A stretch of 41,145 nucleotides of DNA, taken from an uncultured Candidatus Saccharibacteria bacterium. GTDB lineage: Bacteria > Patescibacteriota > Minisyncoccia > Phycocordibacterales > UBA9973. The stretch is from the NCBI GenBank assembly GCA_964366465.1, contig CAYITR010000001.1, positions 1-41,145 on the forward strand, read 5' to 3'. Position numbers and translations under genes: made by a program. This document shows positions 13,250 to 41,145 of the stretch, one piece after another. Positions within the stretch are counted from its first letter, which is position 1. Each line of letters starts with the position of its first letter. Below the pieces are notes generated by a model. The model worked only from the letters and a program-made list of their open reading frames with translations. It did not search any database and was not told where the DNA came from.

Positions 13250-13380
13250 AAAAAAACCTGCCGATGCAGGAATGATATAGACTAAGTATCTTCCCCACAA
13301 AGGGCTGGATTTGGCACCTACTTTTTTAAAGGGTTGCCGGTGGTTCATTGAGCCAGTGCTCTCCCCACACTCTCGATAAT
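13250..13380 (-). promoter_or_regulatory. SAM-I (S-box) riboswitch with terminator, upstream of metK
   Basis: Minus strand reads TTATCGAGAGTGTGGGGAGAGCACTGGCTCAATGAACCACCGGCAACCC..GTAGGTGCCAAATCCAGCCC..GGGGAAGATA. This matches the S-box core (UUAUCaAGAG..GAGGGAcUGGCCCgAUGAAaCCcGGCAACC..GGUGCCAAuUCCagC..GAaAGAUa). It is followed by CCTGCatcgGCAGG plus T7. Confidence 0.85.
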
Positions 13381-13450
13381 ATATTTAATTGTATAAACAT
13401 TATACCACACACAAAACACCACAAAAAATAGTTTTCCACACCTATTCCAA

Positions 13451-13490
13451 CTACTTTACTTGACTAAAGTACTTTACTTTGATAAAGTAG
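13451..13490 (+). promoter_or_regulatory. Promoter/operator module of the yerC-like gene (TTGACT-17-TGATAAAGT) built from TACTTT/AAAGTA inverted repeats
   Basis: CTACTTTACTTGACTAAAGTACTTTACTTTGATAAAGTAG. -35 TTGACT (13460-13465), 17-nt spacer, extended -10 TGaTAAAGT (13480-13488), then 7 nt to ATG 13496. Confidence 0.6.
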
Positions 13491-13495
13491 CCGAT

Positions 13496-13882
13496 ATGAG
13501 TAAAGGAATGAACAAAAATACAAAGGTGGAAACTGTGCGAGCCATTGGCCGGCAGGTCAATTGGAGCTCTGTGGCCAACAGGCGCCTAGTAGAAGCCGTG
13601 CTTGCCTTGCGCACCAAGGACGAAGCCGAGCGCTTCTTGCGCGACCTTATGACAGAAAGCGAGATCAAAGAATTTGCAGACCGTCTCGAAGCTGCTTCCC
13701 TTTTATATAAAGATGTTCAATACAACGCCATTGAAGAATCGGTCAAGCTGTCTTCGACCACAGTCGCCCGCATTGCCAAATGGCTTAACGGCCCTCTCGG
13801 TGGCTACCGACTAATACTTAAAAGAATTTCTCACCATAACAACTCTTCCTCGTTTGGGAAAGGGTTGCGTTCGGCTTCGTAA
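13496..13882 (+). CDS. TrpR-related YerC/YecD-family DNA-binding protein
   Basis: EAVLALRTKDEAERFLRDLMTESEIKEFADRLEAASLL..SVKLSSTTVARIAKWL fits the YerC/YecD (Trp repressor fold) pattern, with an HTH near STTVARI. Start moved from the track's TTG 13460 to ATG 13496 on promoter geometry. Confidence 0.7.
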   Translation: MSKGMNKNTKVETVRAIGRQVNWSSVANRRLVEAVLALRTKDEAERFLRDLMTESEIKEFADRLEAASLLYKDVQYNAIEESVKLSSTTVARIAKWLNGPLGGYRLILKRISHHNNSSSFGKGLRSAS

Positions 13883-14592: not shown

Positions 14593-15339
14593 ATGAAAAA
14601 AATTAATGAAAATAAAAAGTTTTTGATTATTGTCGCCACGCATGGCGACGAGACTTTTAGTTTGCCGATTGTTAATAAAATTAAGAAAAGATTTCGAAAT
14701 AAATTTGATTTTATTATTGGTAACCCAAATGCACTAAAAGAAAATAAAAGATTTATTGATGTTGATTTGAACCGTGTTGCCCCCGGAAAAGAAAAATCAC
14801 CGTTGTATGAAGAAAAAAGAGCCAAGGAAATCATAGAGAAGTCAGAAAATTATTCTTTCATTATAGACATCCACGGCACAATTTCTTCTTCGGGGATTTT
14901 CACTATTGTCACGAATCCAACACCGAAAAATATGTTTTTGGCTTACTCTTTGCCGATTAAAAAAATAGTAATTTGGGGAAGCAAAAATAACAGCAGAGAT
15001 ACGGGCCCACTTTCTCGTTTTGTGAATTGTGGAGTTGGTATTGAATGCGGACCAAAAAATAGTATCAACATTCAGAAAAAATTTGAAGCTATCTTGAATA
15101 CTTTTTTGTCTCAGAAAAACAAAATCCCAGATAATGACAAAGAACTTTACCAAGTTTTCGGGTCTGTAAAAAAAGAAGAATTAAAAAACACGAAAATAAA
15201 ATTGAAGGATTTTAAGAAAGTAAGTTTAAATGATCAACCTTTTTTCCCATTGTTGGTTAATCAATACAGGAGTGATGGCATTGTTTGCTACAAATTAAGA
15301 GAAGTCGATTTTTATCAAAAGTTTAGTTTTCCTTATTAA
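14593..15339 (+). CDS. Succinylglutamate desuccinylase/aspartoacylase (AstE/AspA) family zinc hydrolase
   Basis: ATHGDE (HGxE zinc site), GNPNALKENKRFIDVDLNRVAPG (N.A...R..D.DLNR.fPG) and IIDIHGT motifs. Confidence 0.7.
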   Translation: MKKINENKKFLIIVATHGDETFSLPIVNKIKKRFRNKFDFIIGNPNALKENKRFIDVDLNRVAPGKEKSPLYEEKRAKEIIEKSENYSFIIDIHGTISSSGIFTIVTNPTPKNMFLAYSLPIKKIVIWGSKNNSRDTGPLSRFVNCGVGIECGPKNSINIQKKFEAILNTFLSQKNKIPDNDKELYQVFGSVKKEELKNTKIKLKDFKKVSLNDQPFFPLLVNQYRSDGIVCYKLREVDFYQKFSFPY

Positions 15340-15341
15340 TT

Positions 15342-15878
15342 ATGAAAAAACTACAAATAGGAGTGTTGGGTTGGGCAGGAAAAGAAGAGTATCCCATGGG
15401 AAGCGGGCCAACAAAAAATGAGCTAAAAACAGCTAAGGATGTGGGCTCTTTACTAGCAAAAGCGGGAGTAATCATTGTAACTGGTGGAAAAGGTGGAATT
15501 ATGGAGTATGCGGCTCAGGGTGCAAAAGAAAATGATGGCACTACTGTTGGAGTAATTACTGGACCAAGAAAAACATCAAACAAATGGACGGATATAGAAA
15601 TAGTTACTGGTTCTAAAATTGCTGGTCTTGATGAAGTATTTATTCCCTTAATGTGTGATGCAGTTATCGTTGTTGGTGGCGGAGCGGGAACTCTCCAAGA
15701 AATATGCGTGGCCTATAGAAATAAAATACCAATTATTATTATGGAAAATACTTTTGGCTGGGCTTCTAAGATACTAAAGGAAAAGTATCTTGATTCAAGA
15801 AAAACTGTGAAAATTATTTCAGCAAAAAATCCTAAAGATGCAGTAGAAAAAGCAATCGAGCAATCAAAAATAAGATGA
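15342..15878 (+). CDS. TIGR00725/LOG-like (SLOG fold) protein
   Basis: 178 aa. GVIIVTGGKGGIMEYAAQGA and DAVIVVGGGAGTLQEI are the paired Rossmann-like glycine loops typical of the lysine-decarboxylase-like/LOG family. Confidence 0.65.
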   Translation: MKKLQIGVLGWAGKEEYPMGSGPTKNELKTAKDVGSLLAKAGVIIVTGGKGGIMEYAAQGAKENDGTTVGVITGPRKTSNKWTDIEIVTGSKIAGLDEVFIPLMCDAVIVVGGGAGTLQEICVAYRNKIPIIIMENTFGWASKILKEKYLDSRKTVKIISAKNPKDAVEKAIEQSKIR

Positions 15879-20679: not shown

Positions 20680-20720
20680 CGTCTAAACATTTTAGCATAA
20701 AAATTAAAGAAAGATAGTTG

Positions 20721-21010
20721 AAAAAAGTTAGGGGGTGGCTCGCAAAACGAGCCACCCCAGTGATGCGGTGGGCCAGACCGCACTATACAGGCCCTAACAC
20801 CATTCGGGGTCCCACAGCATAAGCTCCTCCTTTTCTCAAAGAACGAATTTCTGGTGAAATAACCAAAAAGTGACGCTCTTGCGCCACTTAGTGGATTCCT
20901 TATGGATTAGGTTCTAGTTGCTAGGAACTAGATTTTAAGAAATCAACAGACAGACGCAAAAGCTAGGTGCTTCGCGCCCCGCCAAGATTTATTTGATAAC
21001 TTATATTCTT
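20721..21010 (-). ncRNA. GC-rich structured transcript(s) between trpR-like and aspS: sRNA-like 5' part plus mini-ORF leader-like 3' part (unclassified)
   Basis: Starts downstream of the operator/promoter at 21019-21042. Contains a CTAG-rich hairpin TCTAGTTcctagcAACTAGA. Terminator 1 is GUGGCGCaagaGCGUCAC plus U5 (plus 20865-20887). Then SD GGAGGA plus ATG..TAG (20820-20794, MLWDPEWC), the hairpin TGCGGTctggcccACCGCA, and terminator 2, an 11-bp stem GGGGTGGCTCG/CGAGCCACCCC plus U6 (20721-20758). Confidence 0.4.
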
Positions 21011-21018
21011 TACTCAAT

Positions 21019-21042
21019 ACTATCATACTAGTATGCTAGTAT
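21019..21042. promoter_or_regulatory. TrpR-type operator candidate (CATACTAGTATG core), site 1
   Basis: ACTATCATACTAGTATGCTAGTAT has a 12-bp perfect palindrome at 21024-21035 with CTAG boxes 8 bp apart. The 20-mer ATCATACTAGTATGCTAGTA is identical to 38705-38724. Confidence 0.6.
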
Positions 21043-21074: not shown

Positions 21075-21362
21075 CTAACTGTTGATAACTTTCAGGGCTC
21101 GTCTGAACCCACCTTCTTTCTTGCGCATTTCGCGAGAGCCTCGAGTGACCGTAGCTATGCCAAGGTGCAGGTCTTCAGCAATGGATTCTTGGTATTCCCC
21201 TTTTTCCAACTTCTTCACAATCTGCCAACGCACAGCAATATTTTCAAATTCATGCGGTGTCAAAATGGCTTGAATGAAATCTGCCAAGAGTTGCTTGTCT
21301 TTGGAAATTTTTGATATAACCTCTATTAACTCTTTTTTATATTGTTCAGAATTATTTTTCAT
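21075..21362 (-). CDS. trpR: Trp repressor (TrpR) family transcriptional regulator
   Basis: 95 aa. ILTPHEFENIAVRWQIVKKLEKGEYQESIAEDLHLGIATVTRGSREMRK parallels the E. coli TrpR core ([49 protein letters not shown]). Immediately downstream of trpS. Confidence 0.75.
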   Translation of the reverse strand: MKNNSEQYKKELIEVISKISKDKQLLADFIQAILTPHEFENIAVRWQIVKKLEKGEYQESIAEDLHLGIATVTRGSREMRKKEGGFRRALKVINS

Positions 21363-21386: not shown

Positions 21387-21407
21387 CACCATACTAGTAT
21401 GCTGATA
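21387..21407. promoter_or_regulatory. TrpR-type operator candidate, site 2 (upstream of the trpR-like gene)
   Basis: CACCATACTAGTATGCTGATA carries the same 12-bp palindrome at 21390-21401. It overlaps the putative extended -10 TGaTATTCT of the trpR-like gene on the minus strand. Confidence 0.6.
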
Positions 21408-28310: not shown

Positions 28311-28331
28311 CTACAAGGGTTACCCTTGTGG
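28311..28331. repeat. REP-like hairpin, left flank of the RayT-like gene
   Basis: CTACAAGGGttaCCCTTGTGG lies 3 nt after the cysS stop and overlaps the last codons of the transposase ORF. Confidence 0.75.
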
Positions 28332-28967
28332 TGGTACTAGCCAGCTAAATAATTCTCTCTTGTGATCTATGGGATTTTTAAAATACGCAGGAAAGGGACC
28401 AGTATTAATTATTTTTCTTTTTAATCCAACTCCTGTTTTCAGGTATTCTTGTAAACTGGAATATTTATACTCAAACACAAATTTTGTTAAATCATTTAAT
28501 GATTTCGTGGGATTTTCTTTCCAATTTTTATCAATTAATTTCGCTGGATTGAGATGAATATATGCATATAAATATTTCAAGTATCGATCATCTCCTGCGT
28601 GAGAAGATTTAAAAGTGCTTTCAAATAATCTGCCTGTGCGTTTATATTTTAAATTAAAATACATTGAATAGGCGGTGAGAAGTTTGAGCATGTAAGTGGA
28701 AATTCCTTTTTCGCTTTTTTCATATGCTAAAACATGGATATGATTTGGCATCAAACAATAAGCACCGATATCGACAATAGTTTCCCCTCTTTCAAATTTT
28801 TCACCCAAAGCTTTCATCCTTATCGGCTTTTTAGTATTACATATGTGCATTAAAAAAAGAAAATACTCGTGGTCTGATACATCTAAGAAAATAGTTCGCT
28901 TTTCTATCCCCCTAGTGTATAAGTGATAATGCTCTCCAACCATAAAAGATATTTTTCTAGTAGCCAT
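28320..28967 (-). CDS. IS200/IS605-superfamily Y1 HUH transposase, REP-associated (RayT-like)
   Basis: HYHLYTRG..IFLD, HUH motif YCLMPNHIHVL, GRLFESTFKS, and catalytic-Tyr helix YLKYLYAYIHLNPAKL. Start ATG 28967, 6 nt after TATACT. Confidence 0.8.
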   Translation of the reverse strand: MATRKISFMVGEHYHLYTRGIEKRTIFLDVSDHEYFLFLMHICNTKKPIRMKALGEKFERGETIVDIGAYCLMPNHIHVLAYEKSEKGISTYMLKLLTAYSMYFNLKYKRTGRLFESTFKSSHAGDDRYLKYLYAYIHLNPAKLIDKNWKENPTKSLNDLTKFVFEYKYSSLQEYLKTGVGLKRKIINTGPFPAYFKNPIDHKRELFSWLVPPQG

Positions 28968-28996
28968 ACAAAAAGTATAAATCAATCATTCCGAAA

Positions 28997-29839: not shown

Positions 29840-30685
29840 CTATTTTCTGAACTTATAGCCGATGAGTTTGAAAGCAAGCTTGGCGACGAGGAAGTCGTAA
29901 GCGTGGAAGCGTGGGATGGGTGCGCACTCGGCGATGTCTGCGCCGACAACATTTTTCTCGCGAGTAACAGCTTCGAAAATCTCCATTACTTGATACCAAG
30001 TAAGCCCCCCGGGCTCTGGAGTGCCAGTCGCCGGCATGACCGACGAATCGAATACATCCACATCGAAAGAAATGTAAACATTTTTGCCAAGTTGGCTTAA
30101 AATTTTCGGCAAGTCAAATTTGTTGCCATAGTTGACCTGTGTCTTGTCGATGTATTGTTGTTCCGAAAGCGCGGTGTTACGCGTGCCGACCCAAACTATA
30201 TTTTTAATTCCCCCTTCCTGGCACCTGCGAGCAGCGCAAGCGTGCGACCACTTGGTCCCACCCCACTCTTGCCGACAATCGGTGTGTGCGTCAAAATATA
30301 AAATTGAAAGATCTGGATATTTTTCTTGGTAAGCCTTCACTAAGGCTGGAGTGATAGAGTGCTCTCCACCGATACTGAGCAAAAATTTATCTGTATGGGG
30401 TGCAGCTGCTTTATTTATTTTATCTTGAATCGCTTCTAGATCATCCTCAGGGAAATCCAAAAATGGCAAGGTTGCAATTTTAACCTTGCTGTCAACTTCG
30501 TAACCATGTTCATGGTCATAGCGCTCCACTTGTTGCGATGCAGTGATGATAGCCCGCGGGCCCCCGCCTGTACCCTTGCCATAGCTTACTGTCTTCTCGA
30601 GTGGCAACGGCAAGATAAGTGCGTCCGCTTCTTCCAGCGCAACCTCTTCTATTCCTAAAAAATTATCTGGTGTGTTTTCGTCCAT
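29840..30685 (-). CDS. speB: Agmatinase / arginase-family ureohydrolase
   Basis: Mn-binding motifs GGEHSIT, YFDAHTDC and SFDVDVFD. Confidence 0.85.
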   Translation of the reverse strand: MDENTPDNFLGIEEVALEEADALILPLPLEKTVSYGKGTGGGPRAIITASQQVERYDHEHGYEVDSKVKIATLPFLDFPEDDLEAIQDKINKAAAPHTDKFLLSIGGEHSITPALVKAYQEKYPDLSILYFDAHTDCRQEWGGTKWSHACAARRCQEGGIKNIVWVGTRNTALSEQQYIDKTQVNYGNKFDLPKILSQLGKNVYISFDVDVFDSSVMPATGTPEPGGLTWYQVMEIFEAVTREKNVVGADIAECAPIPRFHAYDFLVAKLAFKLIGYKFRK

Positions 30686-30691
30686 GCTAGT

Positions 30692-31792
30692 TTATATCCC
30701 CTCTTTTTTGAGCTCTTCGATAATCTCACGAGATTTGCGAGAAATTTTATTTGGGAGTTTTATATTGAGCTTGATTAATAAATCTCCGCGTTTATTCTTG
30801 CCGATAGGCACACCCTTGCCTCGCACCCGCAGAATTTCGTTAATAGATACACCTTCGGGTATCGTAACCTCAATTGCGCCGTCCAAAGTCTCGATAGGAT
30901 ATTTAGTGCCGAGCAATGCATCAGAGAGTTTCAAATTTAAATTCATCACCAAGTCATGCCCGTCGCGTTTGAAGACAGGATGCGGAGCAACATTTATTTT
31001 TATATATAAGTCACCAGCGGTGCCTTTTGATATTGCTTCGCCCATCGTGGTCATGCGGATCATTTCGCCATCGCGAATCCCAGCCGGAATAACGATAGAG
31101 ATTTCTTCTTCACGACGAGCTACACCTTTGCCTTTACATTTATCACACAATTCTTTTGGCACCTCGCCTGCGCCATGACATTCTTCGCAAATTTTTGTGC
31201 TGGAAATAGTACCGAGGAATGATCTCTTGGCTTCATGAATCTTACCCTGACCATTGCAGTGTTTACAGGTAACCATACCTGAGCCAGCCTTAGCGCCAGA
31301 GCCATGACAAGACAAACACGCGGAAGTTTTCGTAATTAAAATTTTCCTACTGATACCAAAAATAGAGTCAGCAAAAGAAATAGTTATCTCGGTCGAGATG
31401 TCTCTACCTCGGCGCGCCTGCGCTCTGCCACCACCACCGGTGAAAAAGTCACTGAATATGTCGTTCAAATTTCCGAAATCAAACTCTGCGCCATTACCTC
31501 CGAAGCCAGTCGCACCAGAGAAATCAAAACCCTCAAATCCGCCGTATCCACCACCTTGGTGTTGGTGCCCACCAGCGCCCATGTTGGCATATTGAGGTCC
31601 AAATTGATCATATTTAGAACGCTTGCCTTCGTCAGACAGGGTCTGATACGCTTCGTTCACTTCTTTGAACTTTGCCTCATTCCCCTCTTTTTTATCAGGG
31701 TGATATTTGTGCGCCAGCTTATAGAAGGCCTTTTTAATCTCCTCCTTGCTTGCGTTTTTATTTACTCCTAATGTTTCATAGTAATCTTTCAT
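30692..31792 (-). CDS. dnaJ: Molecular chaperone DnaJ
   Basis: J domain DYYETLGV..HKYHPDK, a Gly-rich linker, and four CxxCxGxG zinc-finger repeats. Confidence 0.9.
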   Translation of the reverse strand: MKDYYETLGVNKNASKEEIKKAFYKLAHKYHPDKKEGNEAKFKEVNEAYQTLSDEGKRSKYDQFGPQYANMGAGGHQHQGGGYGGFEGFDFSGATGFGGNGAEFDFGNLNDIFSDFFTGGGGRAQARRGRDISTEITISFADSIFGISRKILITKTSACLSCHGSGAKAGSGMVTCKHCNGQGKIHEAKRSFLGTISSTKICEECHGAGEVPKELCDKCKGKGVARREEEISIVIPAGIRDGEMIRMTTMGEAISKGTAGDLYIKINVAPHPVFKRDGHDLVMNLNLKLSDALLGTKYPIETLDGAIEVTIPEGVSINEILRVRGKGVPIGKNKRGDLLIKLNIKLPNKISRKSREIIEELKKEGI

Positions 31793-31802
31793 AGATTTTT
31801 CA

Positions 31803-33338
31803 TCATATCATAGGCTCTGCTTCTTGTGAAGTTTTTATTTTTGGATTTTCTTCCGCAACTTTTTCCTCCTTTGCCTCGTCAGAACCTGTCGACTCGGTGG
31901 GTTCTTCTTTGCCTTCATTTTCTCCCTCTTTTTTATTTTTACCTTCAATGATAGCTTTTTCTTCTGCGCTTCGGATTATTGTCGCTTCTTCTTCGGCAAT
32001 CAGGCGCGCAGCGGCATCTTTCGAAATGGAGTATTTTTCATGAGAAGCGTTAATTATTTCTTCTCGATAAGAAGGATGAGTCGGAGGCAAAACTCTAAGC
32101 GTCTCCGCCGAAAAAGGATCGTAGGATTCACCATCAATGGTCATTTTGATATAAAATTCTGTCACCGCGAGGTTGATCATGTCTTTCACATCGAAGAGTG
32201 GCGCAAATTCCGGTTTCATTTTGACAGCGTCTTCACCCCCAACTCGGAAAGTTATAATACTCCCGCAATTCCCCAGAACAGCTTGGTGAACTTTAGAAAT
32301 AATCTGCCCGACATATTGATGGGCAATAGTTAGGTTGAGTCCGTATTTACGCGCTTCTGACAAGATGTTTTCAAAAGTCTGCGTAACCACATTCTGAAAC
32401 TCATCCACATATATGTAGAAATCTTTGCGATCTTTTTCGGGTATTGCCGCTCGTTCCATGCCGGCTTGCTTGATTTTGGTTAAAAATATTGACCCAAGAA
32501 AAGAAGAATTTTCCTCGCCGAGGCGCCCTTTAGAAAGATTAATCAGAATAATTTTCTCTTGGTTCATTAATTCACTTATGTCTATTTTGTTTTCCTTCTG
32601 CCCGAAGATGTTGCGGAGGAGTGGGTCGGACAGGAACTGCCCGAGTTTGTTGACAAGCGGAATAATAGCATCAGTGTCGAACTTCTCGGACCAGTCGGCG
32701 AACTCAATAGCGAAGAATCTTTTCACCATGTCGTCGGTGATATACTCCACCACTTTCTGCCGGTAATTTCTGTCGGTCAACATCGAGATCATCCCGCGCA
32801 TTGTCGCGTGCGGGTAGTCGAGGAGCGCAAGGCAAGTAAAACGAAAAACGTGCTCAAGCCTCGGTGTCCAGTTGGCGCCGAACTGCTTTTGGAAAACCTC
32901 AATCAAGCCCTGGGTAAGTTGGAATTTAAACAACGGGTCCACATTGGCGAGTGGATTGAAGGAAGCTGGAAAGTCGAGGTCGGTCGGGTCAATGATACAC
33001 ACATCGTCAATACGCTCTTTCGGTATGTATTCAAGCATAGCGTCGATGACATCTCCGTGCGGGTCAATCAAACAAAGCCCATGTTTGTAGGTGACGTCTT
33101 GGCGAAGCATCAGCTCCAGGAGTTTGGTCTTGCCAACGCCAGACTTCCCTATGATATACAAGTGCCTTCTTCTGTCCACCCGCTTAATGCCGAAAACGAA
33201 CTTCTTCTCTTCAAGAGAAGCCACATAATTCGTCCGCCCGATGAAAGAAACATCTTCGGGATTTACCTTGCCAAAAACCGCCAACTCCGGTGGCGGTGGC
33301 CCATATTTGATTATTTTAACTCGATTTGGCTTTGGCAT
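31803..33338 (-). CDS. Soluble VirD4/TraD (T4CP)-like P-loop ATPase, paralog 1
   Basis: FGIKRVDRRRHLYIIGKSGVGKTK (Walker A), LIDPHGD, FYIYVDEFQN (Walker B-like), LTIAHQY. No N-terminal TM helices. Acidic/Lys-rich low-complexity tail. Preferred start is ATG 33338 (the track uses TTG 33350). Confidence 0.7.
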   Translation of the reverse strand: MPKPNRVKIIKYGPPPPELAVFGKVNPEDVSFIGRTNYVASLEEKKFVFGIKRVDRRRHLYIIGKSGVGKTKLLELMLRQDVTYKHGLCLIDPHGDVIDAMLEYIPKERIDDVCIIDPTDLDFPASFNPLANVDPLFKFQLTQGLIEVFQKQFGANWTPRLEHVFRFTCLALLDYPHATMRGMISMLTDRNYRQKVVEYITDDMVKRFFAIEFADWSEKFDTDAIIPLVNKLGQFLSDPLLRNIFGQKENKIDISELMNQEKIILINLSKGRLGEENSSFLGSIFLTKIKQAGMERAAIPEKDRKDFYIYVDEFQNVVTQTFENILSEARKYGLNLTIAHQYVGQIISKVHQAVLGNCGSIITFRVGGEDAVKMKPEFAPLFDVKDMINLAVTEFYIKMTIDGESYDPFSAETLRVLPPTHPSYREEIINASHEKYSISKDAAARLIAEEEATIIRSAEEKAIIEGKNKKEGENEGKEEPTESTGSDEAKEEKVAEENPKIKTSQEAEPMI

Positions 33339-33381
33339 ATGATTTTGCAAATCACGTCGCGTAAGTCCTTTGGACGCGACG

Positions 33382-33672
33382 CTACCTGTATTTTAGCATG
33401 AATTTGTATGAAAAAGGTTCGGCGTATTTTTCTAAAATACTTCGCTCATATGTGTCGAGTTTGTCGTAACCCAAAATAAAATTCTTTATCACGCTCCATT
33501 CTTCCCTGCCTGCGGGAATAATATCTTTAAAACTTAAAATAGTATCAACTATGTCTAATGCGCGATTTTTTGCATTATTGGCGGCTTCAACTTTCCCAGA
33601 ATCATGAAAAGAAAAAAGCCGGCCTATCTCGGGATATAAGTTTGCCATATAAAAGAGCGCGTTTTTTTCCAT
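33382..33672 (-). CDS. Hypothetical 96-aa protein
   Basis: ORF only, spaced 3 nt from the upstream gene. A GC hairpin CGTCGCGT..ACGCGACG (33355-33381) follows its stop. Confidence 0.45.
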   Translation of the reverse strand: MEKNALFYMANLYPEIGRLFSFHDSGKVEAANNAKNRALDIVDTILSFKDIIPAGREEWSVIKNFILGYDKLDTYERSILEKYAEPFSYKFMLKYR

Positions 33673-33675
33673 AAA

Positions 33676-34032
33676 TTACTTTAAATCAATAAATTTCCGA
33701 ATAATCTCAGTGGCCTTTTTAATAATCTCTTCATTGCTTATATTTCTGGAGCGATTGCCAAAGTTGGGCTTAATGTTGACCATCGAATCAAATTCCAAAA
33801 CCCCGTCAGGATTTTCTTCAAAACGAATATTAAAGCCCCAAACATCTTCAAATTTTGAACCCGTGCTGGTCAGTAGCTCAGAATCTTCAATATGATAATC
33901 CCCGCCCAGCGCCACTCTGCCTCCTTCTATATCCACCGCTCCTTTTATCATCGTTCCATACCAAAAATCCGCCAATTTTTTAACTTCATCTATGCTAATC
34001 TTCTGATCTAAAATAAGTATCCTATTGTCCAT
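33676..34032 (-). CDS. Hypothetical 118-aa protein (small conserved-looking domain, unassigned)
   Basis: The ORF has an extended -10 TGCTAAAAT 8 nt upstream of the ATG. The segment GAVDIEGGRVALGGDYHIEDSELL..EDVWGFNI looks like a widespread small uncharacterised family and needs an HMM search. Confidence 0.5.
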   Translation of the reverse strand: MDNRILILDQKISIDEVKKLADFWYGTMIKGAVDIEGGRVALGGDYHIEDSELLTSTGSKFEDVWGFNIRFEENPDGVLEFDSMVNIKPNFGNRSRNISNEEIIKKATEIIRKFIDLK

Positions 34033-34138
34033 ATTTTTTTATTTTAGCATTTTTGCTGAATTTTTTCTACCTTACAACTTTATACTTTCTACTTTACCTG
34101 TCCCGTAGTGAGCTTTGCTCTACTACTGGGATAACCAC

Positions 34139-35860
34139 CTAATACACTTCCTGTTGATAACACTTTTCGCAATATACTATCTCCGGGCGATTGGGGGCAT
34201 AGCTGGTCTCAAACTCACTTGGACATCGGATGTCCAAGTGGTTGTGGTGGGTAGATTTATCACACATACACTGTCTGTGCCAGAGCCTGGGTGGGTTAAC
34301 TTTTTTAAATCTTTCTTGGTGCCTACACTCAAAACAATTCCTTGGTAAAGGAAGATTAAATTGTTTCAAAAAACTTAATTCACTCTTAATGATTTTATAT
34401 ATACGTTTGCAAGACTCACATTCAATTAACTCATCTAAAATATCAGTACTAACATCACTAATATGATTAGGCAAATCTTGTGATTGAATGGTGGCAGTAT
34501 GTTCTGGTTTTTCTCGTTCAATATAGTTAAACCCACCTTCTAAAACATCTCTCTTGTTTAGGGGAAAATAGTCCGCTGCGACCGTTTCATTGTAGCCGAA
34601 AGGAGAAATCTCTGCTGGAAAATACTCTCCATATTTATAAATTCGTCCTTTTTTGTCCACATACGGGATATTTATCATCTGCTGTTTAATTTTCTCTACC
34701 AATTCTATATACTCTCCCTTGGAATATTGTTTATTAAAAACACAATAACTTTTATTACGAAGCCCTACACATCCAAAAATATTGTTACAACCATGGCAAT
34801 TCCAAGAATATTCCGTATTTAAGCATTCCCACACAGTTAAAACAAATAACTGCCTTGATCCATTTACACCAGAATCCATAGCTTCATAAAGTAATTCTAC
34901 AATTCCAGTACCATACCCATCATAACTATCTTTTACTTTAAACGAATTCATTAAAAATTTATCATCTTTTATATCTTCAAAGACCCCAAAACAATACTTC
35001 GAATTATTGGCATGGCTTATATCATCACCAGAGACATTTGTCGAATTTATAATATTTGCAAATCTTCTAATGGCATCCAACTTTAATTTTTCAAATTTTT
35101 CTTTTACTTTTTTAAAGTTTTCGAAATTCCCCAAATTTAATTCTTTAAATCTTTTAATGTATTCATCTTTTGTGTATTGTACATTCCACATGCAATTTGA
35201 CTTATTTCGAAGAGATGTACAACCGAAACAATTAATACAATTTTTACAATCATAAAGAAAGTAAGAACTAGTACAAGAATCGACATTTTGTGAGAAAAAA
35301 GTTTCATAACTTTTAGTAGAAGAAATATCAGCATAGCAAAATTCACAATTAGAGGTTATGTACATATCTATAGAATCCTTACAGAAATTACATCGTGATG
35401 CATATGTTATATTTTCTCCACCCCAAGACGCAGATACTAAGTATGAATTTCTAAATTCGCCAATAAAATTTCCGTAAGAAGTATTAACGCATTTACCAAT
35501 AAAAAGATTAGGTTGGGGTACCTTTTCCATGAGAGTGCGAAATTGCCCAAAGAACGGTTTTGAAAAATCATAGTCTATGCCAAATGCAATTGGATCCCAT
35601 GAATCACCCCACCATATATCTCTTTCGTAAACAGTAAATGGAGAATCTGTTGAAAAACAACTGATTAAACTCTTTCCAGTTTTTGCACACTTATTTCGGT
35701 GTAACGTACGTTCATTACGCCAAGCCATCCTACGTTGCATACGACACTCCGGACAAAACGTCGGTGGCGGAACTTTGATCTTCTCATAAAAATTAAAATC
35801 CTCCGGTTCAATTACGAAATCTTTTTTACAGTTTTGACAATTTTTTGTTTCAGGTTTCAT
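34139..35860 (-). CDS. Cys/His-rich multi-zinc-ribbon protein, paralog 3
   Basis: 573 aa with the same architecture as paralogs 1 and 2 (CQNCKKDFVIEPEDFNFYEKIKVPPPTFCPECRMQRR ... CFGCVGLRNKSYCVFNKQYSKGEY ... CFECRHQERF ... CMCDKSTHHNHLDIRCPSEFETSYAPNRPEIVYCEKCYQQEVY). TAAAGT lies 7 nt upstream of the ATG. Confidence 0.8.
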   Translation of the reverse strand: MKPETKNCQNCKKDFVIEPEDFNFYEKIKVPPPTFCPECRMQRRMAWRNERTLHRNKCAKTGKSLISCFSTDSPFTVYERDIWWGDSWDPIAFGIDYDFSKPFFGQFRTLMEKVPQPNLFIGKCVNTSYGNFIGEFRNSYLVSASWGGENITYASRCNFCKDSIDMYITSNCEFCYADISSTKSYETFFSQNVDSCTSSYFLYDCKNCINCFGCTSLRNKSNCMWNVQYTKDEYIKRFKELNLGNFENFKKVKEKFEKLKLDAIRRFANIINSTNVSGDDISHANNSKYCFGVFEDIKDDKFLMNSFKVKDSYDGYGTGIVELLYEAMDSGVNGSRQLFVLTVWECLNTEYSWNCHGCNNIFGCVGLRNKSYCVFNKQYSKGEYIELVEKIKQQMINIPYVDKKGRIYKYGEYFPAEISPFGYNETVAADYFPLNKRDVLEGGFNYIEREKPEHTATIQSQDLPNHISDVSTDILDELIECESCKRIYKIIKSELSFLKQFNLPLPRNCFECRHQERFKKVNPPRLWHRQCMCDKSTHHNHLDIRCPSEFETSYAPNRPEIVYCEKCYQQEVY

Positions 35861-35902
35861 CGAATTTACTTTATAACTTTATACTTTCTACTTTATAACT
35901 AC

Positions 35903-37669
35903 TCAATACATCTCCTGCTGGTAACACTTTTCACAATACACTATCTCCGTACGATCGGGAGCGTAGCCAGTTTTGAATTTTTCTCCGCAGGCGGAATCAC
36001 CGTGAATATGTTTGGCGGTGTTTTTATACACACCCGTTTCATCTCCCGCTCCGGCGCACATACATGTTCGTTCATATAGATGAAGTGTCCGCCTGTCAGC
36101 AATCCGGCGCGCGTGCCTGCATTCGCTACACATCCGCGGAGCCGGCAGGTTTTCTTTTTTTAGAAAGATAAATTCATTCTCGAGTACCCGGTAAGCAAAT
36201 CCGCATTTTTCACATTCTAAAACTTCTTTAAGTATATCTTCCGATATTTCATTTATACTCTCCGGCAAATCAAGCGCTTTCATTGTTATCTTGTATTCCC
36301 CTCGCGGAATTTCAATCCAACCGTAATTGTTTTGCATCGCTTCTTCTTTAGAAAGAGGAAAATGTTGCATCGATATAGTGTTGTTATAACCAAACGGGCA
36401 CCACTCAAGCGGGAAGAATTCTCCATATTTATAGACAACGCCCCTCGAATCAACATAGGGCATTTCGCTCATCTGCTCCCTTATTTGAGGCACAAGTTTT
36501 TCATATTCTTCTTTTGTATATTGTTTATTTAAAATGCAATATTGTTTATTTTTTAACCCCACACAACCAAAGCAATTTGCAGAGCTGTAAAGATGCACAC
36601 CGTATTCATTTTCGCGACAATTCGGCCAGCAGTTTCTGGAAAATTTATTATTGTAAGAATTTTGACCGCACTCTATGGCTTCATAGCAAAGTTCGATATT
36701 TTCTCCCCAGTTGGTGGTGTCATAGTTGTCCTTATTGCTTGGTACCGCCAGATACTGGCAATATCGCATATTTTCACTCTCTCGCACGAGGTAGCTGTCT
36801 TTGACATTACGACAGTTGGACACATACGAGCCTGAAGAATTCACATTTTTTATTCCTTGAATATATTTGACGGGTTGAGTGTTCCAAAACTCTCGCGCCC
36901 TCCTGCGAGCTTCTTCAATACCCGACACTGTGTCGAGCCTCATTTTCTCAATTTCATTTTTATATTCTTCCTTCGTGTATTGTTTGTTGAATATCCGATA
37001 TGAAGCTTTGTTGACATTTACGCATCCGAAGCAATCATTGCATCCTACGCAACCTCTACAAAACCACATATTCCTGGAGTCGTGAGTTCGCTCGGTGAAA
37101 TAACATTGATAGCATTTAGTTATCCAAAAACATTCGTAACACCTCTCGGAGTTGTTTATGTGCGAATTGTCCACGCAATCTTTACTGTTATCGACAGCGT
37201 TACCATACATACAATCCTCGGAATCGTTGGAGTTACACAACAGGTAAGAATTTTTTAGTCTAGAGGCGTTGAAGGAATACGGCCTATTGATCATCCCAAT
37301 CACATTGAAGTTATACATTGGCACTTTCATTTCAAGTTTATGGAGCTGTTCCCAGAAAGACCGCGTCGAATCGTAGTCCTGTCCGTATTCCATGGCATCC
37401 CATGTATCCCCGAGCCAAGTACTCCTCTCGATTATTTTCCTGCCGCTCTCTTTGGGATAAGTGGAAAATATTTCTTTCCCGCTGAAAGCATCCTGGATTT
37501 TAAAAAGCTTGCGCTCGTTTCTGAAAGCCAGCCTCCTCTGCGCTCGACAAAGCGGACAAAACGTCGGCGCTGGCACCTTTACTTTCTCATAGAAATTAAA
37601 GTCCTCCGACTCGATAGTGAAATCTTTTTTACAGTTCTGACAAATTTTGTTTTCTGATTGGTGTGTCAT
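35903..37669 (-). CDS. Cys/His-rich multi-zinc-ribbon protein, paralog 4 (most divergent)
   Basis: 588 aa. CQNCKKDFTIESEDFNFYEKVKVPAPTFCPLCRAQRR ... CFGCVGLKNKQYCILNKQYTKEEY ... CSECRHARR ... CMC..HIHGDSACGEKFKTGYAPDRTEIVYCEKCYQQEMY. Its ATG abuts the kinase stop codon. Confidence 0.8.
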   Translation of the reverse strand: MTHQSENKICQNCKKDFTIESEDFNFYEKVKVPAPTFCPLCRAQRRLAFRNERKLFKIQDAFSGKEIFSTYPKESGRKIIERSTWLGDTWDAMEYGQDYDSTRSFWEQLHKLEMKVPMYNFNVIGMINRPYSFNASRLKNSYLLCNSNDSEDCMYGNAVDNSKDCVDNSHINNSERCYECFWITKCYQCYFTERTHDSRNMWFCRGCVGCNDCFGCVNVNKASYRIFNKQYTKEEYKNEIEKMRLDTVSGIEEARRRAREFWNTQPVKYIQGIKNVNSSGSYVSNCRNVKDSYLVRESENMRYCQYLAVPSNKDNYDTTNWGENIELCYEAIECGQNSYNNKFSRNCWPNCRENEYGVHLYSSANCFGCVGLKNKQYCILNKQYTKEEYEKLVPQIREQMSEMPYVDSRGVVYKYGEFFPLEWCPFGYNNTISMQHFPLSKEEAMQNNYGWIEIPRGEYKITMKALDLPESINEISEDILKEVLECEKCGFAYRVLENEFIFLKKENLPAPRMCSECRHARRIADRRTLHLYERTCMCAGAGDETGVYKNTAKHIHGDSACGEKFKTGYAPDRTEIVYCEKCYQQEMY

Positions 37670-38668
37670 TTAATTAAATATTTTTTGAAACTGTTGCTCG
37701 TAATTTTTAAAATTCTTTTCCATTTCTAAAAAATTATCTATTATAGAAACTGCAAATTTCTCAGGTATTTTCTTTTTACTTGAATAATCAATGCAACATA
37801 GAGTTATACCCATAAGAACATTACAAAAAATAATTGACATTTTTTGACGCTCAAGACTTGTGAGTTTTCTTATACTATTATACCCCTTGAAAACTTCTTT
37901 GGCTTTCCTCAGATCAATTTTACCCCCATTGCAGGCAAACCACATTATAGTGTCAGCTAAATCATAGGCTAAAATACCAACGTATGAATTATCGAAATCC
38001 ACAACCCCAGAAAGGTGCCCCTTCTCAAAAAGCACGTTTTCTGGTTTTAAATCTATGTGAATTGCCCCCGTGGGGAGACCGAGAGGCATTTTATAACTCA
38101 TGTATTTAGCTCTAATGTACTCTAATGCTTTTCTTATTTTAGGATTCTTGTGGGCTTTATTCTCTTTTACAATCTTTTCAATATTTTCGTAAAACTCTGT
38201 ATAAAATTTAGTGCGTTTAACTAAAGACTTAAAATTGGTAGTTTGCAAATGCAGCTTTCCCAAAAATTCACCCACTTCAAAAAGCATTTTTTTAGTAAAA
38301 ACTTTTTTTTCATTTCCAGTGATGAAAGTATAGATAAAGCTCCTGTGTCCCTTATAATTGAAAGTGCTTTCCTCACCTCGTGTTTTAATAATCTTGGGAA
38401 TAGGTAGGTTCTTCAGGTAATTTAATAGATTTATCTCGAAATCTAATTTTTTGGAATTGTGCCTAATCGAAATTTTAAAAGTAAAATACCCTTTCGTGGT
38501 TTTAATACGATATAAACAATTAGCAAGGCCTTTTTCTAAGGGTTGATAACTTAATACTTTGCCAAGTTTAAAATATTTTAAAAGATAGTTGTCTAAATCT
38601 TTTTTATTTACTTTTGGGGCTGATAGGTAGGCCATGAATTTAAGCAACAACTGTTGCTTTCGGTACAT
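37670..38668 (-). CDS. Protein-kinase-fold phosphotransferase (APH / homoserine kinase type II / CotS-like)
   Basis: Catalytic loop IHIDLKPENVLF (HxDxxxxN) and metal-binding VVDFDNS. Confidence 0.75.
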   Translation of the reverse strand: MYRKQQLLLKFMAYLSAPKVNKKDLDNYLLKYFKLGKVLSYQPLEKGLANCLYRIKTTKGYFTFKISIRHNSKKLDFEINLLNYLKNLPIPKIIKTRGEESTFNYKGHRSFIYTFITGNEKKVFTKKMLFEVGEFLGKLHLQTTNFKSLVKRTKFYTEFYENIEKIVKENKAHKNPKIRKALEYIRAKYMSYKMPLGLPTGAIHIDLKPENVLFEKGHLSGVVDFDNSYVGILAYDLADTIMWFACNGGKIDLRKAKEVFKGYNSIRKLTSLERQKMSIIFCNVLMGITLCCIDYSSKKKIPEKFAVSIIDNFLEMEKNFKNYEQQFQKIFN

Positions 38669-38702
38669 CTAGCCACGAGAAATTTTTTGCTTCTTGTTTC
38701 AT

Positions 38703-38728
38703 ATCATCATACTAGTATGCTAGTAAGC
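38703..38728. promoter_or_regulatory. TrpR-type operator candidate, site 3 (upstream of the kinase/Cys-rich operon)
   Basis: ATCATCATACTAGTATGCTAGTAAGC has the palindrome CATACTAGTATG at 38708-38719. It lies in the 63-bp gap between the ATPase-2 stop and the kinase start. Confidence 0.6.
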
Positions 38729-38731
38729 ATC

Positions 38732-40810
38732 TTATTCTAGCAACTTCTTCAGCACATCTTCGGGCACTTCCTTGATATTATTCGAAGTAAGCGGAGGCTC
38801 CCCGCCTGCATCAGCTATGCCTAAAGCATTGCGGGCAGGTGCAACTTTTTTGATTACTTCTTTCAATTTATTCATATCTTCCGGCTTGGCGGCGCGGTCT
38901 TCATGCTTGCTGGAGGCAGGAACATGGGGCACAGATTTCGGAGGCGTATTTAAGACATTCAGGGAAACAGGCGCAGGTGTAGGCGCTGTTTCAACTTTGG
39001 GTGCAGGCGCAGGAGTGATAACAGTAACTTTCAAAGCATTATCTTTGGCCAGTGTTTTATTCAGCACTTCTTTGAGCGCGGTGTTCGATTTGACTCCTCC
39101 AGTAGGTGCGAATTTTTTGGATGTATCTACCCTCTCTACTTTGTATGGATTAGAATGCACCGGGGAACGCACTGGTTGAACTTGCTTTTTTGGTTCCTGG
39201 TGGACAGGTCGCTCCTCCACAAATTCCCCACCCGAACTCGACGGAAACTCGATACCTAGATCCGCCAGCGGTTTGAAAAACTTTGAATCGTCGTATTTAA
39301 TCTGATTTTCGGAAGTTTTTTCTACTTTAACTTCGCCGGATTTTATTTTAGCAATACACTCCTTACAGTACGCTGGTCGCCCCGGCTCTGGCTTAAACGG
39401 CACGGTTTTTTCTAGCTTACAAAGAGAACAAATAATCGGAAATTTCTCAAACGAACCCGTAACACTATTCATACTGCTTGACGAAGTATCGTCTCCAAGA
39501 GTCATCCCGCTCCAGTCGTTAATTTCTTTCTCCACCACTTCTTTTGTCCGGCAATACAGCTCTCGCGAGGATTTGATAACTTGTTGTTCAATTTCTTTAT
39601 TGCCGGACTTCACCATCTGGGGCAAGGTCTTGGCCGAGAATGGCCGTGAGGTCACGCCATCAATCATCAGCTTCAAGTAAATTTTATAGTTCGGCAAATT
39701 AACGATGTCTTGCGGGGTAAATTCTGGGTCAAATTCACTTTCCAGAAATTCGGCATCGTCCGCGCCGACACGGAAAACGATCATTGTCCCCACGTTGCCG
39801 AAAATAGCATCCCGCACTGCCGAGCTTTTGTCCACCACGAGTTGAGCGGTGTATTGGTGCGCCACGGTCAAGTTCAAGCGATATTTGCGAGCCTCCGAGA
39901 GGATTCCAGCGAAGGCGTCAGTCACGAAGTTCTGGAATTCGTCCACATATAGGTAGAAGTCACGTCTGGCTTCCTCGGGAATGCGCACACGCTCCATGGC
40001 CGCGAGCTGAATTTTGGTGATGATCATCCCTCCGAGTAACGCGGAATTGTCCTCGCCAATACGCCCCTTGGACACGTTGACTAAGAAAATTTTACCCTCG
40101 TTCATCATATCGAAAACATTAATCGTGCTTTTCGACTGACCGACGACGTTGCGGATTATAGAAGTGGAGAGGAATTGTCCAACTTTGTTTTGAATCGGAG
40201 CGATAGCTTCGTTTCTGAATTTGTCCTGCCATGCCTCATATTCATGCACCCAGAAAGCCTTAATCACCGGATCTTTCAGATTGGAAATAATTTTCTGGCG
40301 GTAATCCTTGTCCACCAGCATTCGCGGGATACCGAGGAGCGTGGTGCCAGGTGTATCGAGCAAGGCTAAAATACAATTGTTCAAAATGTATTCCATTCTA
40401 GCGCTCCAAGCATTCGCCCAAATTTTCGTAAATATTCCCATTAAGCCCGAGGCCACCAAGTGCTTGTATTGCGGATCCACCAGCTCGAGCACGTTGAAGC
40501 CGATGTGGTGGTCGGCATCGGCGGGGTTGAAATAAATCACATCTTTCATTCGATGTGGTGGAATAGCTGAGAGCACGCTCTCAACATTTTCTCCGTGTGG
40601 GTCAACAAGGCAAACCCCCTCGCCGTTTTGAATGTTCTGAATAATCATATTGAACATCAGCACGGATTTACCTGTGCCGGACTTTCCGAGCACATAAACA
40701 TGCTGGCGCCTGTCTTTGCGCTTGATGCCAAAAAGGGTGTTCTTGTCCCGATAAGTGGTTATGCCAAGATAAGTAAGTTCTTTATTGAACGGCACCTGAA
40801 ATTCTTCCAT
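38732..40810 (-). CDS. Soluble VirD4/TraD (T4CP)-like P-loop ATPase, paralog 2, with C-terminal CxxC-x17-CxxC zinc ribbon and Pro/Ala-rich tail
   Basis: FGIKRKDRRQHVYVLGKSGTGKSV (Walker A), LVDPHGE, FYLYVDEFQN, LTVAHQY. CSLCKLEKTVPFKPEPGRPAYCKEC spans aa 461-485 (nt 39356-39430). Extended -10 TGtTATAAT lies 7 nt upstream of the ATG. Confidence 0.75.
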   Translation of the reverse strand: MEEFQVPFNKELTYLGITTYRDKNTLFGIKRKDRRQHVYVLGKSGTGKSVLMFNMIIQNIQNGEGVCLVDPHGENVESVLSAIPPHRMKDVIYFNPADADHHIGFNVLELVDPQYKHLVASGLMGIFTKIWANAWSARMEYILNNCILALLDTPGTTLLGIPRMLVDKDYRQKIISNLKDPVIKAFWVHEYEAWQDKFRNEAIAPIQNKVGQFLSTSIIRNVVGQSKSTINVFDMMNEGKIFLVNVSKGRIGEDNSALLGGMIITKIQLAAMERVRIPEEARRDFYLYVDEFQNFVTDAFAGILSEARKYRLNLTVAHQYTAQLVVDKSSAVRDAIFGNVGTMIVFRVGADDAEFLESEFDPEFTPQDIVNLPNYKIYLKLMIDGVTSRPFSAKTLPQMVKSGNKEIEQQVIKSSRELYCRTKEVVEKEINDWSGMTLGDDTSSSSMNSVTGSFEKFPIICSLCKLEKTVPFKPEPGRPAYCKECIAKIKSGEVKVEKTSENQIKYDDSKFFKPLADLGIEFPSSSGGEFVEERPVHQEPKKQVQPVRSPVHSNPYKVERVDTSKKFAPTGGVKSNTALKEVLNKTLAKDNALKVTVITPAPAPKVETAPTPAPVSLNVLNTPPKSVPHVPASSKHEDRAAKPEDMNKLKEVIKKVAPARNALGIADAGGEPPLTSNNIKEVPEDVLKKLLE

Positions 40811-40881: not shown

Positions 40882-40910
40882 TTGACTTTTAGCACCGAGT
40901 ATGCTATACT
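40882..40910 (+). promoter_or_regulatory. Near-consensus promoter TTGACT-17-TGcTATACT
   Basis: cccTTGACTtttagcaccgagtatgcTATACTatattt has an exact 17-nt spacer. The spacer contains AGTATGCTA, half of the CTAG-operator 20-mer. Confidence 0.7.
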
Positions 40911-40916
40911 ATATTT

Positions 40917-41145
40917 AGATTAGGGGGCCGGAACTGTGGAAGACCCCTCGGTCCGGGCGAAAAACGATATCTCGCGTTAATCGCCACCGACACGGCCACC
41001 ACGACCCGGGCCACCCTTGAACCAGCCCACCCCAACGAGGGTCGGGCACAGAAAGGAGGAAGTTCTTGAGAAATAAAGATCCGCCCTAACTGAGCGGAAC
41101 ATCCTACGAACGGCCTGGGTACGCGACGCGACCCCGGGCCGTTTT
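40917..41145 (+). ncRNA. GC-rich structured RNA or leader (unclassified) ending in an intrinsic terminator at the window edge
   Basis: Nested helices GACCCcUCG/CGAGGGUC, GGUCCGGG/CCCGGGCC and GGCGA/UCGCC. SD-like AGAAAGGAGGA plus a 7-codon TTG mini-ORF (41066-41089, MRNKDPP). Terminator CGGCCUGGG..CCCGGGCCG plus UUUU (41111-41145). Confidence 0.45.

Follow-up and report, generated by a model that had tools for sequence, protein, structure and literature searches.

Two coupling-protein-like ATPases and a multi-copy cysteine-rich family at a conserved Patescibacteria locus apart from type IV secretion genes

Introduction

What does an ATPase of the coupling-protein type do in a genome region where no type IV secretion genes accompany it? 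The question is raised by contig CAYITR010000001.1 (assembly GCA_964366465.1) of an uncultured Candidatus Saccharibacteria bacterium, in which two such ATPases (here ATPase-2 and ATPase-1) bracket a kinase-fold protein, two large cysteine-rich proteins (Cys3 and Cys4) and two small open reading frames (ORFs) between positions 31,803 and 40,810. The window analyzed is the entire 41,145-bp contig, and everything said of the surroundings ends at the contig ends. The original prediction, made from the sequence alone, took these seven genes for one dedicated machine. An ORF scan confirmed that all seven are real and reproduced the predicted order, strand and packing, and comparison was made with approximately 160 related loci (designated by L numbers), including 80 centered on ATPase-2. 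The module is real and conserved; the kinase and the small ORFs are outside it.

A large part of bacterial diversity belongs to the Patescibacteria, which have tiny genomes and interact with their hosts in ways that are poorly understood. Among the most obvious unexplained core genes of the phylum is this ATPase: nearly all members have it, several housekeeping proteins are less conserved, and it is detached from secretion systems. Orphan homologues of coupling proteins have already been noted (PMC12102498), but the literature searched contained no description of the split membrane partner, the tail peptides, the ATPase duplication or the strong link to the cysteine-rich family, and nothing on that family itself. 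The reading favored in this study, with a probability of about 0.55, is that a phylum-wide, vertically inherited orphan coupling-protein module takes its Paceibacteria form at this locus, with a membrane-docked motor that would have the zinc proteins as adaptors or clients.

Conservation of ATPase-2 across the Patescibacteria

ATPase-2 is a P-loop ATPase of the VirD4/TrwB/DotL type that is under very strong constraint across the Patescibacteria and is encoded apart from type IV secretion system (T4SS) genes. A scan of GTDB species representatives recovered relatives in at least 598 species at 49–89% identity, spanning Nomura-, Wolfe-, Lipton-, Colwell-, Staskawicz-, Doudna-, Moran-, Uhr-, Falkow-, Buchanan-, Portnoy- and Niyogibacteria, while a search with the ATPase-2 core returned at least 8,000 clusters, with 87–93% identity among the 120 matches listed. 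As a measure of constraint, each protein was compared with its window counterpart across an identical set of genome pairs. In close relatives (L007–L015) ATPase-1 retains 78–90% identity, compared with 72–81% for DnaJ and 54–74% for CysRS, and the ATPases as a pair are more conserved than either of these proteins. In distant lineages (L037, L038, L060, and L070) ATPase-2 retains 52–62%, compared with 40–46% for MraY and 36–41% for FtsW. This pattern speaks against a defense island or mobile element and agrees with a 2025 survey of the phylum (PMC12102498). In several distant lineages ATPase-2 is also close to mraY and ftsW, in the division and wall cluster.

Motifs and tails of the two ATPases

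The two ATPases share 43% identity over 425 amino acids (E = 4e-131). Pfam TrwB_AAD_bind, T4SS-DNA_transf, TraG-D_C and DUF87 match both, with E values for TrwB_AAD_bind (PF10412) of 1e-10 for ATPase-2 and 9e-8 for ATPase-1, and the NCBIfam matches are likewise the TrwB, TraD and VirD4 models. The best match of the family profile among solved structures was DotL (6sz9, E = 3e-7), followed by TrwB (E = 7e-7). Both proteins have a nucleotide-binding domain of the TrwB type with Walker A and Walker B motifs, the columns of which are invariant in the ATPase alignment (A4); Walker B of ATPase-2, YVDEFQN, lies at approximately residues 288–294. The Pfam alignment extends across the part of the domain in which coupling proteins have an inserted all-alpha domain. 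Coupling proteins are also recognized by an N-terminal transmembrane anchor in the same polypeptide and by genetic linkage to a T4SS or relaxase. Neither ATPase has a membrane segment (maximum 19-residue Kyte-Doolittle hydropathy 1.1, with Walker A of ATPase-2 beginning at residue 42), and the linkage is missing from the window. Similarity at this level supports the predicted assignment of both proteins as coupling-protein-like paralogues (VirD4/TrwB/DotL type) that have no membrane anchor of their own. The window ORFs scanned included no gene for a relaxase, VirB4, pilin or integrase. VirB4 was likewise missing from the large or Walker-A ORFs tested in the approximately 160 related loci, a check that was not exhaustive, in keeping with the earlier view that this is not a conventional conjugation or T4SS module.

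Beyond the core, ATPase-2 has a CxxC-x17-CxxC zinc finger that exceeds the cutoffs of both Pfam zf_Tbcl_2 (PF23477; 37.8 bits, cutoff 27) and TIGR04272 (38.7 bits, cutoff 36). The spacing is present in 68 of the 85 ATPase-2-type ORFs and in none of the 19 ATPase-1 ORFs. Small proteins of Methanosarcina mazei with this spacing have been shown by experiment to bind zinc (PMC12704099). The Methanosarcina proteins are little more than the finger; here it is appended to an ATPase and, probably, to multi-domain proteins of approximately 575 amino acids. The finger in ATPase-2 is followed by a 200-residue low-complexity tail that is hypervariable (7–47% conserved), yet its tip, KEVPEDVLKKLLE, is near-invariant among close orthologues. 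The tip follows the pattern KEVPEDVL[KR]K[IL]LE in the lineage of the window, and the types [VI]xKPGExxKF or LRxxLKEAL in other lineages. ATPase-1, which has no zinc finger, has a likewise disordered tail with an acidic linker followed by EAEPMI, GGEPLI or PEPLI; the window copy has EAEPMI, and its counterpart in ATPase-2 is the tail peptide KEVPEDVLRKILE. A conserved peptide tipping a disordered tail is the usual means by which such motors hold their partners, for example TraD with TraM and DotL with its adaptors; TraD likewise has a C-terminal tail with a conserved peptide at its end.

The cysteine-rich family and its association with the ATPases

In Paceibacteria-type loci the ATPase is duplicated, giving ATPase-1, and a multi-copy cysteine-rich family is interleaved with both ATPases. 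ATPase-1-type genes were seen only in these loci and always near ATPase-2, and the cysteine-rich family was seen only in the same loci and in the same set of lineages. An ATPase is present in 20 of the 35 loci (57%) of at least 12 kb that are centered on a cysteine-rich gene, where 6% or less would be expected (binomial p about 1e-15). The order anchor (a membrane protein described below), ATPase-2, cysteine-rich array, ATPase-1 occurs in L093, L126, L147 and L153; L004 and L167 have the anchor, ATPase-2 and the array, with ATPase-1 further downstream in L004. Another recurrent order is dnaK, ATPase-2, Cys3, Cys4, ATPase-1, dnaJ. Cys3 orthologues are usually directly downstream of ATPase-2 and Cys4 orthologues usually just upstream of ATPase-1; in L007–L015 dnaK and dnaJ enclose the ATPase block. 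The ATPases themselves have two layouts, either ATPase-2 followed at a distance by ATPase-1 and dnaJ, or ATPase-1 directly upstream of ATPase-2. The order ATPase-2, cysteine-rich array, ATPase-1 survives rearrangements.

The four cysteine-rich proteins in the window have 32–37 cysteines each and 42–75% identity to the first paralogue. The family comprises 6,432 clusters at 90% identity, none of which is named or has a Pfam domain, and at least 2,224 representatives at 50% identity (E of 1e-30 or better). Members are uniform in length (approximately 545–600 amino acids) and occur in several to many copies per genome, with up to seven in tandem; the top 150 representatives have a single architecture and no domain fusions. 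No match above threshold was obtained in Pfam or NCBIfam, nor any solved-structure match by sequence profile. Below threshold, zf_Tbcl_2 matches 5 and zf_Tbcl matches 14 of 53 members. An N-terminal CxxC...CxxC ribbon has a second copy near the C-terminus (hhalign probability 98%), two repeated cysteine-cluster modules each end in NKQYxKEEY, the segment YKYGEFFPxELSPFxYNET is very conserved, and the C-terminus is highly conserved. The terminal finger aligns with that of ATPase-2 (hhalign probability 87.6%, E = 3.5e-6) with the C-x17-CxxC spacing kept, and the two are probably homologous, judging from this alignment. The proteins have no signal peptide or membrane segment. The AlphaFold2 model of Cys4 is good (predicted local distance difference test, pLDDT, 80; predicted template modeling score 0.81) and has no solved-structure match below an E value of 4. 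A phage origin was considered and rejected: the viral contig collection holds no relative, and fold matches in BFVD are confined to a zinc ribbon of 40–66 residues.

Other genes accompany these arrays. ABC half-transporter exporters of approximately 600 amino acids (ABC_membrane plus ABC_tran) recur inside or beside them (L090:6496-8295, L111:8146-9981, L115:8122-9921, L013:5109-6899, L102:1713-3530, and L121:3982-5784) and sit between ATPase-2 and ATPase-1 in three loci. On a Nomurabacteria scaffold a cysteine-rich gene has a thioredoxin/DsbB pair on one side and pilB, pilC and a pilin gene on the other (L001:9003-15323), and at least five paralogues occur within 21 kb of that scaffold.

A probable separate membrane anchor upstream of ATPase-2

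Clustering of all ORFs in the 80 loci centered on ATPase-2 identified a protein of approximately 460 amino acids as the probable anchor. More distant lineages have a conserved array of secD, secF, a sigma-70-region-4/HARE-HTH protein, the anchor and ATPase-2, often with secA a few genes further upstream. Of 73 loci, 44 have the anchor gene at most 300 bp ahead of ATPase-2 and another 7 have it at a greater distance upstream. In L035 (866 amino acids) and L063 (834 amino acids) the anchor is fused to a coupling-type ATPase domain. The protein has N-terminal membrane helices, of which the AlphaFold2 model shows two. Pfam and NCBIfam searches returned no family name for it, and PF26449 is annotated (precomputed) on some homologues. 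The membrane anchor that ATPase-2 lacks is thus probably a separate and usually adjacent subunit. The term "soluble" in the original prediction is misleading, as most relatives encode a membrane partner directly upstream of ATPase-2, fused in two proteins to an ATPase of this type. No anchor gene is present in the window or within 10 kb in its closest relatives.

Each of the 13 best solved-structure matches of the anchor model is either a VirB4/TrwK chain or an R388 T4SS inner-membrane complex with such chains in it (probability 0.84–0.99), although these matches are weak (E about 1e-3, template modeling score about 0.3) and come from a low-confidence model (pLDDT 62).

A short ORF of 74 amino acids, which is conserved and has two membrane helices by prediction, overlaps the beginning of the anchor gene (L167:9777-10001 and L005:4142-4366) and may be a third membrane component of the anchor and ATPase-2 unit. 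In distant lineages clpB (L049:186-2984) or grpE-dnaK-dnaJ (L039 and L044) lies a few kb upstream of the anchor and ATPase-2, which echoes the embedding between dnaK and dnaJ in the lineage of the window.

Proposed mechanism and comparison with known systems

From anatomy and neighborhood, the ATPases would form ring motors, with the separate anchor subunit as their docking point at the membrane. Partners would be engaged by the zinc finger and the tail peptides, in parallel with the DotL tail that holds adaptor proteins, and the cysteine-rich zinc proteins would be lineage-specific adaptors or clients of the motor rather than secreted toxins. The recurrent neighbors secA, secDF, grpE-dnaK-dnaJ and clpB favor protein handling or translocation over DNA transfer.

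Known systems share parts of this arrangement. The ATPases belong to the same P-loop clade as TrwB of R388, VirD4 and TraD by Pfam, NCBIfam and solved-structure matches, with Walker A and B intact. They differ from these proteins in having no membrane segment and no adjacent T4SS or relaxase genes; in being chromosomal, near-universal in the phylum, very slowly evolving and present as tandem paralogues; and, for ATPase-2, in the zinc finger. DotL (IcmO) of Legionella, with the adaptors DotM, DotN, IcmS, IcmW and LvgA, is the best-scoring solved relative and serves as the working analogy for the ATPase tails and the cysteine-rich proteins. Its long C-terminal extension holds the adaptor proteins, one of which is zinc-binding. 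However, DotL has its own membrane helices and is part of the complete Dot/Icm secretion system, and its adaptors share no detected homology with the cysteine-rich family. The anchor resembles VirB3-VirB4 (TrwM-TrwK) in its two N-terminal membrane helices and alpha/beta domain, and the split or fused anchor and ATPase recall VirB3-VirB4 fusions, but the ATPase here scores as VirD4-like rather than VirB4-like and no VirB6 or VirB8 genes are nearby. The same wider superfamily includes ring motors that are anchored in the membrane and stand alone, namely FtsK/SpoIIIE and Streptomyces TraB, and by analogy the anchor and ATPase-2 could form such a motor. Unlike those proteins, the pair has no Pfam FtsK_SpoIIIE match at an E value of 0.01 or better, no four-helix membrane domain and no gamma domain. 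The literature searched held nothing on an absence of FtsK in Patescibacteria.

Several observations weigh against the orphan-module reading. The link between the ATPases, the cysteine-rich proteins and the anchor is positional, and conserved housekeeping neighbors in streamlined genomes may be functionally meaningless. Across the more distant lineages in the sample, neither a cysteine-rich gene nor ATPase-1 lies within 10 kb of ATPase-2. The core role of ATPase-2 therefore cannot depend on the cysteine-rich genes, and cysteine-rich arrays occur in other contexts (given below). The low confidence of the anchor model makes its resemblance to VirB4 weak evidence, and membrane docking is unproven in the lineage of the window, since no anchor is encoded within 10 kb there. 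A coupling-protein homologue of the Saccharimonadia has been reported to be non-essential (PMC12102498), which is awkward for a core function.

What the locus offers are concrete handles: a probable separate anchor subunit, tail peptides suited to docking, and a duplicated motor tied to a very large cysteine-rich family. Specific candidate partners and peptide contacts can now be named.

Alternative explanations

The alternative that survives best, unlikely as it is, holds that the ATPases are true coupling proteins of a Patescibacteria monoderm-type T4SS encoded elsewhere, whose transfer into host cells would involve the cysteine-rich proteins as substrates, effectors or recruitment adaptors. 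The ATPases do fall in the coupling-protein clade by sequence, the modeled anchor may resemble the N-terminal part of VirB4, and the multi-copy neighboring family has a highly conserved C-terminus. The survey cited above found 5,713 VirD4-like homologues in 2,918 genomes of a dataset of 3,026 assemblies, only 148 of them near virB4, and VirB4 in about 80% of assemblies (about 2,400) (PMC12102498). A large distance from virB4 is therefore common for these genes, but the homologues are more widespread than VirB4 itself. In S. epibionticum, moreover, the coupling-protein homologue is not essential while the T4SS genes are, and the authors of the survey consider exaptation possible (PMC12102498). 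The failure to find VirB4 among the ORFs tested in the related loci counts in the same direction. Uniform length, slow evolution and predicted zinc binding also set the cysteine-rich proteins apart from effectors and sit badly with transport in an unfolded state.

A bolder and doubtful proposal would take the split anchor, the twin ATPases and the cysteine-rich family together as an unrecognized, Paceibacteria-specific envelope translocation apparatus that is independent of the T4SS, its zinc proteins serving as interchangeable cargo receptors or as cargo while proteins or nucleic acids move between episymbiont and host.

It is also improbable that the ATPases and the cysteine-rich proteins have no functional link, the ATPase locus being one of several sites that gather an expanding metalloprotein family and its passengers. 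Such an account would explain why the more distant lineages sampled have ATPase-2 by itself and why the same intervals harbor variable passengers (kinase, Fic, PemK, and ABC exporters). Cysteine-rich arrays are also found beside dsbB and pilus genes, beside ribonucleotide reductase genes, and beside mraY/ftsW, the last being a second recurrent context (L107, L123, L131, L136, L157, L159, and the window itself). Against independence stand the excess of ATPases in loci centered on cysteine-rich genes (57%, with 6% or less expected), a gene order that outlasts rearrangements, the shared lineage distribution of ATPase-1 and the family, and the probably shared zinc-finger module (hhalign probability 88%).

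Kinase, palindrome and small open reading frames

A single machine of all seven genes, kinase and small ORFs included, is very improbable. The tight same-strand packing, with the kinase stop codon abutting the next start codon, had suggested it, but in the more distant lineages sampled ATPase-2 has neither ATPase-1 nor a cysteine-rich gene within 10 kb, and the seven therefore do not make up a single obligatory machine. Of the predicted co-localization, the part that joins the ATPases to the cysteine-rich family is conserved and the part that includes the kinase is not. The kinase has one weak counterpart in the approximately 160 loci (L028, 119 bits), and L120 has the otherwise identical order ATPase-2, two cysteine-rich genes, DUF5674, orf96, ATPase-1, dnaJ with no kinase and no room for one. 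Fic, PemK or ABC-exporter genes hold comparable positions in other loci. By Pfam the protein is a member of the APH (PF01636) superfamily (E = 2e-26; 93.8 bits, cutoff 23.2), and it falls below the cutoffs for homoserine kinase type II (ThrB-alt; 148.9 bits against 271 and 112 against 256). It is a lineage-specific passenger behind a TrpR-type palindrome and not a conserved member; it looks like a recent local insertion, and it can be removed from consideration.

The operator predicted for the gap between ATPase-2 and the kinase, which gives the kinase its own operator-bearing upstream region, is present as an operator-like palindromic 19-mer, ACTAGCATACTAGTATGAT. It has an exact second copy at 21022-21040 and a copy with three mismatches at 21388-21406, all on the minus strand, where 0.01 would be expected by chance. 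The copies near 21 kb flank a 95-amino acid TrpR-family gene (21075-21362), a second TrpR-family gene lies at 13460-13882, and the same palindrome is upstream of a cysteine-rich gene in L009 (L009:3910-3928). Its ACTAG-N3-ACTAGT core resembles the Escherichia coli trp operator. The palindrome is probably a TrpR-family repressor operator and not a locus-specific element.

The 118-amino acid ORF is DUF5674 (PF18924; E = 5e-21; 75.2 bits, gathering cutoff 27), and orf96 has no Pfam or NCBIfam family. They occur as a pair in L007, L089, L090 and L120, and orf96 alone occurs in L145. The two are a facultative insert that is confined to close relatives, contrary to their predicted membership of the system.

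That the locus is an anti-phage defense system or a mobile-element remnant is hardly credible. The PADLOC search proposed with the prediction gave weak, generic ATPase matches (mad8, E = 6e-15 and 2e-11, and HerA models), and Fic and PemK genes are near in one relative and an IS200-like gene is 3 kb away, but the other five proteins have no PADLOC match, the full gene complement of MADS or HerA systems is missing, no integrase or relaxase is present, the cysteine-rich family is absent from the viral contig collection, and the genes are exceptionally conserved, vertically inherited and set among housekeeping genes. A known defense system was rejected on these grounds.

Other features of the window

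The coordinates of the locus are given in Table 1. The intergenic gaps from ATPase-2 through the speB-like gene are 63, 0, 42, 106, 3, 43, 10 and 6 bp. The remaining genes of the window are housekeeping genes: ftsW, mraY, scpAB, metK with an S-adenosylmethionine (SAM) riboswitch, aspS, trpS, dnaB, recR and cysS.

Table 1. Positions of the genes and sequence elements of the locus and of related genes in the window.
Feature	Position	Strand	Description
ATPase-2	38732-40810	minus	692 aa; coupling-protein-like; core aa 1-440, zinc finger, variable disordered tail
Walker A of ATPase-2, GKSGTGKS	40664-40687	minus	aa 42-49, read from translation
CxxC-x17-CxxC treble-clef zinc finger of ATPase-2	39347-39445	minus	aa 456-488
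C-terminal peptide of ATPase-2, KEVPEDVLKKLLE	38735-38773	minus	tip of variable tail
Palindromic 19-mer, ACTAGCATACTAGTATGAT	38706-38724	minus	in gap between ATPase-2 and kinase
APH-fold kinase	37670-38668	minus	332 aa
Cys3, cysteine-rich zinc-ribbon protein	35903-37669	minus	588 aa
Cys4, cysteine-rich zinc-ribbon protein	34139-35860	minus	573 aa
DUF5674 protein	33676-34032	minus	118 aa
orf96	33382-33672	minus	96 aa
ATPase-1	31803-33338 from ATG	minus	511 aa; open frame begins at TTG 33350
dnaJ	30692-31792	minus	Pfam; downstream neighbor of ATPase-1, conserved in lineage
speB-like gene, arginase fold	29840-30685	minus	downstream of dnaJ
Two more cysteine-rich paralogues	3314-5062, 5122-6876	minus	582 and 584 aa; adjoin mraY and ftsW

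The contig end upstream of ATPase-2 (40900-41145) is GC-rich (approximately 60%) and folds better than shuffled sequence on both strands (z of -2.75 and -3.9), with a hairpin followed by a T-run at 41080-41098. Rfam gave no match to these 246 nucleotides, and related loci have no counterpart of them, with dnaK in that position instead. A promoter and terminator scan of the locus found sites no more numerous than in shuffled sequence.

The IS200-like gene, of the Y1 transposase fold (PF01797, E = 1e-6), is at 28320-28985 on the minus strand and has homologues in L039, L064 and L090. The SAM riboswitch ahead of metK (Rfam RF00162, 64.6 bits; 13283-13382, minus) is overlapped by the longest metK ORF, so the real start codon is probably further downstream. 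The aspS leader (20680-21010, minus) is long and has a strong terminator-like hairpin at its end (GGGGTGGCTCG...CGAGCCACCCC plus a T-run); it resembles an attenuator or a T-box-type leader, with no Rfam match to a T-box upstream of aspS. A SLOG cluster4 (LOG-like) protein (15342-15878) adjoins an AstE/AspA-type deacylase (14593-15339), in a region of locally low GC content (0.35) and positive GC skew.

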